DNA of 64,000 nt from an uncultured Gammaproteobacteria bacterium (lineage in GTDB: Bacteria > Patescibacteriota > Microgenomatia > Levybacterales > UBA12049): the NCBI GenBank assembly GCA_964408485.1, contig CAYOZJ010000001.1:92366-156365 (forward strand), given 5' to 3'. This document shows positions 6,680-15,473 of the stretch, piece by piece; position 1 is the first letter of the stretch; each line of letters begins with the position of its first letter. A program made the translations under genes and the position numbers. Below the pieces are notes generated by a model. It did not search any database, was not told the origin of the DNA, and was given only the letters and a program-made list of their open reading frames with translations.

Positions 6680-6705
6680 TCACCCGCCAGAGAGCGGGTT
6701 TTTTA
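6680..6705 (+). terminator. Rho-independent terminator
   Basis: Hairpin ACCCGC-CAGAGA-GCGGGT followed by TTTTTT, immediately downstream of the stop at 6657. Confidence 0.65.
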
Positions 6706-6727: not shown

Positions 6728-7876
6728 ATGAAAAAACAACAAGATTTAATAATTATTGGAGGAGGCATTATGGGCCTCATGACAGCGTATTTTGCTTCAC
6801 AGTTTGTGAAGAATATTACTGTGCTTGAAAAATTAACCATTGGTAATAAAGAGTCAGCATCATTTAGTTTTACGAGATCAATGCGTAGTGACTACTTAGA
6901 TCCTGAGTATTCCCGTCTTGCGTATGAATCACAACAGATCTGGAAGCAAATCCAAAAAAAGGTGAAAAAACAGTTTCTCTTTTCTTGCGGATGCATGAAT
7001 ATTGCCAAAAAATCTGTTACCCCTGATTTTGCTAACACATATGCGCAGATTGCATATAACAATGAGCTGTCCGTGAATCTCCCAACAAAAAAGTTCACAA
7101 AATCTACATTAAAAAAAGTTTTCCCTCAATTTAGTGCAGATATGGCTTGCCTTGATATCGAGGCAGGATTTTTGTATCAACCGGTAATCAATGAATTTAT
7201 TCTTAGAACTCTTCAGGAGAGAAACGTAACTATTATTGAAAACGTTACTACAGAAAAAATTGTAGACAAAGATAGTGTAACAATTACAACAAACAAAGGT
7301 ACCTTTATAGCAAAGAAATTAGTTATTACTGCTGCATTAGGAACAAATAATGTCATTCAAAAAATTCAAGGAAATACAATCCAATTCCCTATATATCCTG
7401 ATAAACCTCAGGAATGCAAATATATCTACATTCCAAAGCGATTGCAAAAATTATTCTCTCCTAAAAATTTTCCTGTTTTTGCTTATTTAGATGTAGGTAT
7501 TTACGGACACCCTATTTTTGATGCCAAGAAACAATGCATTAAAGTTGGATTTTATAATCCACCAGACGTATCAAAGAAATTGAATAAAAGAATAAATTCT
7601 ATTGATTCATTCATTACTGAATGCTTGCCGTTACTTAAAGATGCAAAAAGAGAGTTGGTAAAAGATGCTGATCAGTGCTCGTATGACTTGGTTAAAGACG
7701 ATAATTTTATTTTAGGTAAATTACCAAAGTTTAAAAATATTCTTGTTGGATGCGGATGGCGTGGAACAGGATATAAATATGCTCCTCTTATTGGAAAAAT
7801 TCTTATGCAAGAAGCGCTGCAAAAAGGAACTGTTTATAACATTACGCGTTTTTCGCCGGAAAGGTTTGCAAAATGA
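6728..7876 (+). CDS. FAD-dependent oxidoreductase of the sarcosine oxidase / N-methyltryptophan oxidase (MSOX) family
   Basis: N-terminal Rossmann FAD motif IIIGGGIMGLMTAYFAS. C-terminal block CGWRGTGYKYAPLIGKILMQ resembles MSOX GFSGHGFKF...G. Confidence 0.7.
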   Translation: MKKQQDLIIIGGGIMGLMTAYFASQFVKNITVLEKLTIGNKESASFSFTRSMRSDYLDPEYSRLAYESQQIWKQIQKKVKKQFLFSCGCMNIAKKSVTPDFANTYAQIAYNNELSVNLPTKKFTKSTLKKVFPQFSADMACLDIEAGFLYQPVINEFILRTLQERNVTIIENVTTEKIVDKDSVTITTNKGTFIAKKLVITAALGTNNVIQKIQGNTIQFPIYPDKPQECKYIYIPKRLQKLFSPKNFPVFAYLDVGIYGHPIFDAKKQCIKVGFYNPPDVSKKLNKRINSIDSFITECLPLLKDAKRELVKDADQCSYDLVKDDNFILGKLPKFKNILVGCGWRGTGYKYAPLIGKILMQEALQKGTVYNITRFSPERFAK

Positions 7877-8897
7877 AAAAAGGAATTCTTGAACGATTGC
7901 AAAAAGGGGTTGTTTTAGGGGCGGAAGGATATGTTTTTGAACTTGAATGCAGGGGGATATTAAAGCAGGTCCGTATGTACCTGAAGTGGTATTGGACGCA
8001 CCAAATGCAGTCAGAGAATTAAGCAATGAATTCCTGCGTGCTGGGGCAGAAGTAATTGTTGCACTTACCTACTACGCCAACAGAAATAAATTAAAAGATG
8101 TAGGACGGGAAGGAGATCTAGAGACATTAAATAGACAAGCAGTCAGAATTGCTAATCAGGTTGCCAAAAAAGGCAACGCGCTTGTTGCAGGAAATATCTG
8201 CAATACCTGGATGTACGATCCAAATGATAAAGAAAAAAGTGGCAAGGTTGTCAGGAAAATTTATCGCGAGCAACTACAATGGGCCATGCAGGAAGGAATA
8301 GATTTTGTTATCTCAGAAACAAATGATTACTTGGAAGAAGCGCTTATTGGACTACAGGAAATAAAACGCCTTGGTTTGCCTAGCATGGTTACCTTGGCTA
8401 CTATCCAAAAAGACAAAACAGCAGATGGATATGATTATATAGAAGCATGTAAAATTCTTGAAAAAAATGGAGCAGATATCGTTGGGCTTAACTGTGATAG
8501 AGGACCAGCAACCATGCTCCCCCTTTTGAAAAAAATTAGGAAAGCAGTAAAATGTTTTGTTGCTGCACAACCTGCACCATACCGAACAACACAGCAACAA
8601 TTTACTTTCGAATCACTCAAAAAAAATGGACAGCGCATTTTCCCTCTTGGACTCGATCCTTTTCTCCTTACTCGATTCGAAATGGCAGAATTTGCTAAAA
8701 AAGCAAAAGCAATCGGTATTAACTACATCGGCAGTTGCTGTGGAACAAACCCATCTATGACACGAGCCATGGCTGAGGCTTTGGGTCGAACGGTACCTGC
8801 AAGTAAATACTCGCCTGTTTTAGATTTACACCCTGTTATTGGCAATACTATTCAAACAGACAACAAAGAATTCATTGCAGATTGGAGAGATGACTAA
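7873..8897 (+). CDS. Betaine/homocysteine S-methyltransferase (BHMT-like, Pfam S-methyl_trans) with an apparent +1 frameshift at a G5 run (7951-7955)
   Basis: Frame A from the ATG at 7873 gives [28 protein letters not shown], which matches the BHMT N-terminus ([28 protein letters not shown]). Frame B from 7947 continues (Y/D)IKAGPYVPEVVLDAPNAVRE...QVAKKGNALVAGNICNT...NCDRG...IGSCCG, which also matches BHMT. The start overlaps the upstream gene as ATGA. Confidence 0.8.
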
Positions 8898-8898
8898 T

Positions 8899-9021
8899 AT
8901 GGAAATTGCACTCATTACTACCATTGTATTTTTTACTGTTAAAGGAATTATTTCTTTACTCGGAATTATCTGGGTTGGGAAAAAAGTTAAGAAATATATC
9001 AGAAGGGAAAATGAAAAATGA
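8899..9021 (+). CDS. Possible 40-aa single-TM micro-protein
   Basis: MEIALITTIVFFTVKGIISLLGIIWVGKKVKKYIRRENEK, one hydrophobic helix plus a basic tail. Weak evidence. Confidence 0.25.
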   Translation: MEIALITTIVFFTVKGIISLLGIIWVGKKVKKYIRRENEK

Positions 9022-9500
9022 AAAAGCAGACTGCCCAAACTTTTCCATTTGATTTAGAATTAATCTTAGGGGAACAAAGGGATAAATATGTGGACTTTAA
9101 TTTACCAATTTACAAAGTTTTTCGTGGTTGGGAAAGATTAAATCCGTATCTCGAACAAGATAACTATTTTGTTGTATTTGAGTCAAAAAGAAAAAGGTAC
9201 CCTTTCTTAGACCAATTACTCGATTTTGCAGATTACTTTGCATATCGGGAAGCAAAGAAGATGCCTGGATTCCGAGGGTACTACCGAGGTGAATTGGACA
9301 AAGAAACACACCTCTGCCGATCTTTTTGCGTTTGGGATAAAAAAGAATCTGCTAGGAATAGCGCAAGACAACCTAAACACAGGAAGGCAATGCTTATGAC
9401 AAAGGTTGCTTTTGACCTGTACAGAGTCAAAAGATATATTGTCCAAAAAAGAAAAGATAAAATCCTTTTCCAAGAATATATCCCGGAAAGGAGTAATTAA
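9018..9500 (+). CDS. Hypothetical protein, 160 aa, translationally coupled to hisS
   Basis: Stop/start overlap TAATG with hisS. AAGGAG Shine-Dalgarno for hisS lies inside its 3' end. Confidence 0.5.
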   Translation: MKKQTAQTFPFDLELILGEQRDKYVDFNLPIYKVFRGWERLNPYLEQDNYFVVFESKRKRYPFLDQLLDFADYFAYREAKKMPGFRGYYRGELDKETHLCRSFCVWDKKESARNSARQPKHRKAMLMTKVAFDLYRVKRYIVQKRKDKILFQEYIPERSN

Positions 9501-10753
9501 TGAAAACGAATAAGAATTCTGATATCATTACAAGTATGCAAGTACAAACACTAAAAGGATTCAGGGATTTTTTGGGAGCTGAAGCTCGAAAAAGAAAATA
9601 TGTTATGGACACTTTCAAAAGAGTGTTTGAGTCCTATGGATTTGAGCCACTTGAAACTCCTGTAATGGAATATGAGGAGATTCTTATGGGTAAATATGGT
9701 GAAGAGGGTGATAAATTAATGTATCGGTTTGAGGATAATGGGCAAAGACGTGTTGCACTTAGATACGACCAAACTGTTCCTAGTTCCCGATTTGTTGCAC
9801 AATACCTGAATACTCTTCCCATGCCTTTCAAGAGGTATCAAATGCAAAATGTATACCGCGCCGAGAATACACAAAAAGGACGGTATCGAGAGTTTTTACA
9901 ATGTGATATTGATATTTTTGGCATTGATTCTGCATTGGCAGATACAGAAATTATTCTTACCATGATAGCGAGTTATAAAGCGCTTGGTTTTAAGAATTTT
10001 AAGATTCTTCTTAACGACAGATCTAACTTTGAAGGACTTACTACAGAAACAATTATCGTAATTGATAAGCTTAAAAAAATTGGCGAGGACGGAGTCTGTC
10101 AAGAAATGGTTGATAAAGGAATTACGAAAACTAAAGAAGAAGCGTATAACTTACTCCAATCCGTGGTTGAAAAAAAACTAACAGAAAGACTAACTGAAGT
10201 GTTTGCTCTTCTTGAAAAAGAAGGAATCGATAAAGAGACTATTGTCTTCTCCCCTACTCTAGCTCGTGGACTTGATTACTACACAGGAATGATTATAGAA
10301 ATAGAAAGTCCTGATTATCCAGTTGGATCTCTCGCAGGGGGTGGACGATTTAATAATCTTATTGGCATGTTTGCAAACAAACAAATCCCAGCAGTTGGAA
10401 TTGCAGTTGGGTTTGATAGAACAATGGAAGCAATGGAAGCATTAGATTTATTTCCAAAAAATTTAAGCGAAGCATCAGCAAAAGTATTGGTAACAATCTT
10501 TAATAAAGAATTAGAAAAAAAATCATTGGAAATAAGTTCTCGCTTACGCTCGAACAATATAAATACTGAGGTCTACCTATCTGATTCTAAAATGGAAAAG
10601 CAGTTAAAATATGCTGATCAAAAAGGAATCCCGTATGTTGTGATTATTGGTCCAGAAGAACTAGATAAAAATGTTGTAACACTTAAGGATTTAAAAAATA
10701 GAACACAAGAACAAATGACTTTAGAAAACGTTATAAAAAAGCTTAATCAATAA
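9500..10753 (+). CDS. hisS: Histidine--tRNA ligase
   Basis: Class II aaRS motifs and HisRS signatures (GFRDFLG, RYDQTVP, QCDIDIFG, GGGRFNNL). C-terminal anticodon-binding domain. Confidence 0.95.
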   Translation: MKTNKNSDIITSMQVQTLKGFRDFLGAEARKRKYVMDTFKRVFESYGFEPLETPVMEYEEILMGKYGEEGDKLMYRFEDNGQRRVALRYDQTVPSSRFVAQYLNTLPMPFKRYQMQNVYRAENTQKGRYREFLQCDIDIFGIDSALADTEIILTMIASYKALGFKNFKILLNDRSNFEGLTTETIIVIDKLKKIGEDGVCQEMVDKGITKTKEEAYNLLQSVVEKKLTERLTEVFALLEKEGIDKETIVFSPTLARGLDYYTGMIIEIESPDYPVGSLAGGGRFNNLIGMFANKQIPAVGIAVGFDRTMEAMEALDLFPKNLSEASAKVLVTIFNKELEKKSLEISSRLRSNNINTEVYLSDSKMEKQLKYADQKGIPYVVIIGPEELDKNVVTLKDLKNRTQEQMTLENVIKKLNQ

Positions 10754-15352: not shown

Positions 15353-15473
15353 TTTGGAGATGCGGGGAGGAATTAAACCTCCGTCTTTTGTCTTGCGGAC
15401 AAACGCCTTAACACTTGACTACCGCATCACAAGCATTATACCAAGAATATAGCTATTTGCCCATAAAAGATTT

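Follow-up and report, generated by a model that had tools for sequence, protein, structure and literature searches.

Animal betaine-homocysteine S-methyltransferase (BHMT, EC 2.1.1.5; PDB 1umy, 1lt7/1lt8), with glycine betaine as methyl donor, is a protein of 406-407 residues with a (beta/alpha)8 Zn-dependent Hcy-methyltransferase domain, a KKGILERL...RGY[IV]KAGP stretch and metal ligands provided by one Cys followed by a Cys-Cys pair. In animal-type BHMT, some 90 residues past the barrel form a C-terminal oligomerisation region. Alphaproteobacterial Bmt, represented by the NCBIfam equivalog NF005718, is another member of the PF02574 superfamily, with the same chemistry proposed for it; it has been studied in PMC12478193 and PMC12366255. 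A bacterial family of BHMT-like proteins of 340-345 residues is found in Ktedonobacteria, Actinomycetota, Saccharimonadales-labelled MAGs and other groups. Here we describe a copy of this family encoded in the window, the whole 64,000-nucleotide stretch of DNA analysed in this work, whose reading frame is broken by a single base. The copy shares 62-87% identity, length and the same upstream oxidase gene with its bacterial relatives; unlike it, every listed relative is intact, and the loss of a base together with a nearby change to Cys is confined to the window copy. The family of the disrupted enzyme is already well known, and a single-base disruption is in itself ordinary.

The BHMT-like gene lies on the + strand, starts with the ATG at 7873 and ends with the TAA stop codon at 8895-8897, spanning 341 codons once repaired. 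Two open reading frames cover it in the DNA as deposited, and both exist as the first-pass annotation described them: a frame 0 ORF of 49 aa (7873..8022) and an ORF of 316 aa (7947..8897) in the -1 frame relative to the first. The first 28 codons, in frame 0 (7873..7956, +), encode the N-terminal helix, barrel strand beta-1 and a short helix; the gene then resumes in the -1 frame, and this 3' fragment (7957..8897, +), running from (Y)IKAGP to DWRDD, encodes the remainder of the (beta/alpha)8 barrel. The break falls between 7956 and 7957, at the 3' edge of the sole run of five G residues here (7952..7956, +; placed one base too far upstream, at 7951-7955, in the first-pass annotation). Frame 0 continues past the junction for 21 out-of-frame codons and reaches a premature TAA at 8020..8022 (+). 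Calling the event a +1 frameshift, as had been done, mislabels it: one base is missing from the DNA, the sequence past the junction is in the -1 frame, and a ribosome could follow it only by shifting -1. The ATG of the 316-aa ORF (7947..7949, +) stands in the -1 frame immediately after a TGA in that frame. The true start of the gene is 7873, with the SD-like element GGAAAGG 8 nt upstream; the 316-aa 'gene' that the ORF finder returns, which public protein databases list as P0001, is truncated.

A single base inserted directly after the G5 run restores a 341-aa protein, as had been proposed, and the assignment of this protein as BHMT-like was borne out. The repaired protein matches PF02574 with an E-value of 4.4e-41 and 142.1 bits (gathering cut-off 22), residues 38-304 aligning with positions 25-283 of the 283-position profile, while residues 2-306 align with rat BHMT (1umy, E 1.6e-54) and human BHMT (1lt7, E 2e-53). 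Judged from these comparisons, homology to BHMT is far above chance. The alignment to the solved BHMT structures passes the junction without interruption, and the (beta/alpha)8 Zn-dependent domain, the stretch around RGY[IV]KAGP and the Zn triad are shared: NCDRG (8490..8504, +), with the first Zn-binding Cys, is intact and aligns with VNCHFDP of BHMT (NCHFD), and SCCGT (8733..8747, +), with the second and third Zn-binding Cys, is intact and aligns with GGCCGFEP (GCCGF). The first-pass annotation had the first 28 codons matching the BHMT N-terminus almost residue for residue, which holds for the bacterial relatives (24-25 of 28 residues identical) and overstates the likeness to rat BHMT (18 of 28).

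The differences from the animal enzyme are those of extent, of one loop and of frame. The alignment stops near chain residue 316 of the 407 in animal BHMT, and the part of the animal chain past this residue is without a counterpart in the 341-aa repaired protein; the C-terminal region of about 90 residues seen in animal-type BHMT is accordingly absent. The window motif GAEGY takes the place of GDGGF in BHMT, whose GDGG loop we take to be in contact with homocysteine. In the unrepaired DNA the barrel lacks the single continuous frame expected of a PF02574 protein, since the break follows codon 28 and leaves beta-1 upstream. Alphaproteobacterial Bmt is a more distant comparison: the repaired protein scores 72.9 bits against NF005718, where the cut-off is 338, so that it falls outside this equivalog and is nearer to the animal enzyme by sequence.

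A search of 5.8 billion proteins returned more than 7,000 relatives of the BHMT-like protein. Among the matches listed, those spanning the whole query have 339-378 residues, and the sole truncated entry is P0001, the window's own 316-aa product, in a singleton cluster. The closest relatives by identity are P0002 (87%), P0003 (86%) and P0004 (78%). At the level of DNA, the junction motif ELE[R/K/H]RGY[I/V/L]KAGP is uninterrupted and in one frame in all 81 loci compared, which represent many phyla, and it is intact in all the close syntenic relatives (L002/L003, L004 and L005/L006). The Tyr at the junction is found in 81 of 81 loci, and mammalian BHMT also has RGY. One further relative, P0005 (JGI, 439 aa), has about 95 of its residues duplicated in tandem within the chain, with MVALTYYAHREKLRDVGRE... 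present twice; this duplication may be either real or an assembly artefact.

These alignments also bear on which base is missing. Where the closest syntenic relatives read GGC-TAT-ATT, GGA-TAT-ATA or GGT-TAT-ATA, the window reads GGG-AT-ATT; because the Tyr is invariant and the DNA of these relatives has the form GGN-TAT-ATT, the most parsimonious reading is that the missing base is the T of the invariant TAT codon, lost next to an unchanged G5 run. A loss of this kind, with the run at its original length, is not the classic pattern of a homopolymer-length miscall. The repair first suggested, a sixth G giving RGD, is probably wrong, as it would call for an additional, non-conservative change, putting Asp at a Tyr invariant in the 81 relatives and in mammalian BHMT, and the DNA favors loss of T. 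Two codons upstream of the break, a Cys codon (TGC, 7948-7950) replaces a conserved basic residue, which is R in 79, K in one and H in one of the 81 relatives and K in mammalian BHMT. This change creates the -1-frame ATG at 7947, so that the 316-aa ORF begins there. The substitution and the deletion may have arisen in a single complex mutational event or may coincide by chance.

Apart from the break, the gene shows no sign of decay. With the T restored, 116 of 117 near-invariant columns (those invariant or single-deviant among 79 sequences) are kept, the single deviation being V235A. No second lesion was found in the 313 downstream codons, in a genome that is AT-rich (38% GC). Pairwise dN/dS against the three closest relatives is about 0.05-0.10, equal to that among the intact relatives themselves, and the branch leading to the window copy is not longer than theirs; synonymous sites are saturated in these comparisons (dS 1.6-2.0 to the nearest relatives), and we therefore rejected dN/dS as a means of dating the lesion.

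The gene immediately upstream (6728..7876, +) is intact and encodes an FAD-dependent oxidase resembling monomeric sarcosine oxidase and N-methyltryptophan oxidase (PF01266, E 1.3e-33, profile positions 1-351 of 353); its residues 2-381 also align with positions 2-376 of the 377-position NF008425 profile, at a score below the cut-off. The oxidase stop overlaps the BHMT-like start in the tetranucleotide ATGA (7873-7876), and a 4-nt overlap of start and stop is also seen in relatives with the oxidase gene upstream. In about 70 of 85 related loci (the L002-L086 set) the two genes are adjacent, with the oxidase immediately upstream, and the paired loci are labelled Ktedonobacteria, Actinomycetota, Dormiibacterota and Saccharimonadales. 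Identity of the methyltransferase ranges from 60-87% among these loci, which come from several phyla, so the pair is a conserved, probably horizontally mobile two-gene module; the pairing itself is suggestive of a module for methylamine or betaine-type methyl donors.

Downstream of a terminator-like hairpin (6682-6699), the window carries a + strand run of oxidase, BHMT-like gene, a 39-aa ORF, PB2B2_08 and HisRS, separated by short gaps or overlapping. The BHMT-like gene is probably transcribed regardless of the break, because it sits within this closely spaced run. The 39-aa ORF (8900-9019, +; MEIALITTIVFFTVKGIISLLGIIWVGKK...), between the BHMT-like gene and PB2B2_08, is hydrophobic and has no Pfam match; a 40-aa gene is called at the matching position in L001 and L003. 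The genes for P0003 and P0004 have the same surroundings as the window gene (TrpR-like, FAD oxidase, BHMT-like, 40-aa ORF, PB2B2_08, HisRS, EamA, L31 and RF1), and P0002 is encoded on short contigs on which the oxidase or PB2B2_08 flank can be seen. The order TrpR-like, oxidase, BHMT-like, with HisRS downstream, was also observed in L007 (DASQJJ010000064.1, labelled 'Candidatus Eisenbacteria') and L008 (CAYQEE010000004.1, 'uncultured Gammaproteobacteria'), with 57-86% protein identity to the window; the next closest matches after these two are the Saccharimonadales-labelled MAGs L009 and L010, and the taxon labels of the L007 and L008 bins may be unreliable.

The break is present in two assemblies. 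The Logan contig SRR9179560_670989 comes from a k-mer assembly independent of the deposited 157,916-bp NCBI contig. Its 2,231 bp match window positions 7385-9615 exactly, across the junction, and the base is therefore absent from the majority path of the reads and not lost through a slip of one assembler. The two assemblies may share the same reads, and may thus not be independent at the read level; the shortness of the Logan contig (2.2 kb) may also reflect modest or low coverage. A strain-level sibling was not found by exact-protein look-up, among cluster members, in the search of 5.8 billion proteins or in a scan of GTDB genomes, nor in JGI metagenomes searched with the junction DNA pattern carrying 0-3 extra bases; the sole return from the sibling searches was the Logan contig from SRR9179560. 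When the neighbouring oxidase and HisRS proteins were looked up by exact sequence, no match came back, and a literature search for SRR9179560 found no paper. Elsewhere in the window about 80 ORFs tile the 64 kb tightly. In five suspicious same-strand ORF pairs that were checked, six of the ten ORFs have separate, essentially full-length domains and the remaining four have no confident Pfam match; no pair shares a family, and no further frame break was seen in these pairs. The window contains more than 600 homopolymers of at least 5 nt, 38 of which reach at least 7 nt and which include A9 and A8/T8 runs. The assembly is not prone to indels.

We consider it likely that the break is a real and evolutionarily very recent 1-bp deletion in the sampled population, making the gene a young pseudogene or null allele; its frame is disrupted relative to intact orthologues in conserved synteny, as in a recent pseudogene. 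The proposed course of events is that the T of the invariant Tyr codon was deleted (GGG-TAT to GGG-AT) at the 3' edge of the G5 run, after codon 28. Translation from 7873, coupled to that of the upstream oxidase gene, would then terminate at 8020-8022 and yield a 49-aa peptide, and the 313 remaining native codons would stay open with no credible initiation signal ahead of them. As a product begun at the ATG at 7947 would lack beta-1 and the GAEGY loop, the enzyme would be inactivated. The Cys change two codons upstream suggests a local mutational event. Against a real deletion stands the fact that the gene otherwise looks fully functional, and a sequencing artefact would look identical. It is nonetheless unlikely that the genome carries an intact gene (GGGGG-TAT or, less likely, GGGGGG-AT) from which sequencing or consensus calling lost a base at the edge of the G run. 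The otherwise conserved sequence (116 of 117 columns, dN/dS near 0.05), the intact and translationally coupled partner oxidase gene, the position of the break next to the G5 run and the hint of modest coverage in the short Logan contig are all what such an error would leave behind. On the other side, the two assemblies are identical over 2.2 kb, no other gene checked in the 64 kb appears frameshifted despite the more than 600 homopolymers, and the Tyr is restored by adding T rather than by lengthening the run. The exact 2.2-kb k-mer contig, moreover, argues for accurate short reads, in which one-base deletions carried by the majority of reads are rare, and the reads are presumably accurate here. 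The first-pass annotation had left four explanations side by side, pseudogene, sequencing error, phase variation and programmed frameshifting; the real pseudogene is now the best supported of these and sequencing error the less likely reading, while the other two find no support.

Even when phase variation and every form of bypass are taken together, they are improbable. Bypass would require either -1 slippage of tRNA-Gly on G_GGG (7953-7956) before ATA, low-level or programmed, giving a full-length ...ECRGDIKAGP... enzyme, or a split enzyme in which the 49-aa peptide, holding native residues 1-28, complements the 316-aa product from the ATG at 7947. We regard this as very improbable, and the chance that the break is both real and tolerated, with an active enzyme arising by -1 slippage or from a two-piece barrel, as a little slighter still, even if an active enzyme of this kind would explain the absence of decay in the 313 downstream codons. 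The downstream ORF is indeed fully preserved, and GGG re-pairs perfectly one base back (7954-7956 to 7953-7955). The junction does share with programmed -1 sites (for example dnaX, with A_AAA_AAG, an upstream SD and a downstream hairpin) a downstream frame of -1 and a run of identical bases; unlike them, it lacks a tandem-slippery heptamer, an SD at the correct spacing and a significant hairpin, and it is not conserved among relatives. No X_XXY_YYZ heptamer is present, the zero-frame sequence being C_AGG_GGG, so that the A-site codon alone re-pairs and the P-site AGG would face CAG. The predicted fold of 7945-8045 has a z-score of -0.93, with 30 of 200 shuffled sequences folding as well, and the sole SD-like element, GGAAGGA (7923-7929), ends 22 nt before the run and 17 nt before the ATG at 7947. 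Slippage would moreover put Asp at the invariant Tyr, and the frameshift occurs in none of more than 80 relatives. Programmed frameshifting at a slippery site, which had been put forward for testing, was rejected for want of a heptamer, of downstream structure or SD and of conservation in orthologues.

As for the split enzyme, the Cys change does place an ATG ahead of the junction, where the -1 frame is open for just three codons, and none of the seven closest relative loci would offer a start in that stretch. When the same T deletion was simulated in the relatives, a chance ATG in the open new frame appeared in 10 of 81; the coincidence of a new ATG is only mildly unusual, and the ATG at 7947 is probably incidental. 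The 316-aa product is without beta-1, which the AlphaFold model of P0002 (87% identical; pLDDT 86.8) places at residues 15-18, between helices at 6-12 and 22-27. Internal initiation at 7947 was rejected as a candidate: no SD is suitably spaced, a -10 box is missing at the distance of about 6 nt found in the apparently leaderless genes of this genome, and the product is without beta-1. The break is presumably not bypassed. Phase-variable (contingency) switching by slipped-strand mispairing in the G tract is the least credible of these readings. A homopolymer does lie at the break, early in the gene, as in such systems, but the tract is only 5 nt long, and known contingency tracts are usually at least 7-8 nt. 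The tract is also missing from the relatives, which have GAGGC, GCGGA and GTGGT at this position, the lost base is most simply T and not G, and a housekeeping methyltransferase is an atypical target.

If the deletion is real, as we favor, the sampled population has only just given up a BHMT-like way of converting homocysteine to methionine but retains the partner oxidase, a minor example of gene loss still under way in a Saccharimonadales-like soil lineage with a small genome. Should it be an artefact, the BHMT-like gene ought to be annotated as intact. The significance of either outcome is slight outside annotation.

The start signals of the window were also surveyed as a whole. An SD-like duplex of -5 kcal/mol or better was found at 8 of 58 putative starts, and in many apparent first-in-operon genes a -10-like box (GCTATACT, GGTATAAT, GCTATAAT) ends about 6 nt before the ATG; starts that exemplify the survey are 35603(-), 36275(-), 36971(-), 63770(-), 28265(-), 20159(-) and 3958(+). 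This arrangement suggests that leaderless mRNAs are widespread in this genome. Rfam and tRNA scans of the window returned nothing relevant to the break in the BHMT-like gene, the sole RNA gene found in the 64 kb being a tRNA-Cys (GCA) at 15355-15428 on the - strand. The operon-internal genes starting at 6728, 7873, 9018 and 9500, among them the oxidase and BHMT-like genes, have SDs of the GGAG/AAGG type.
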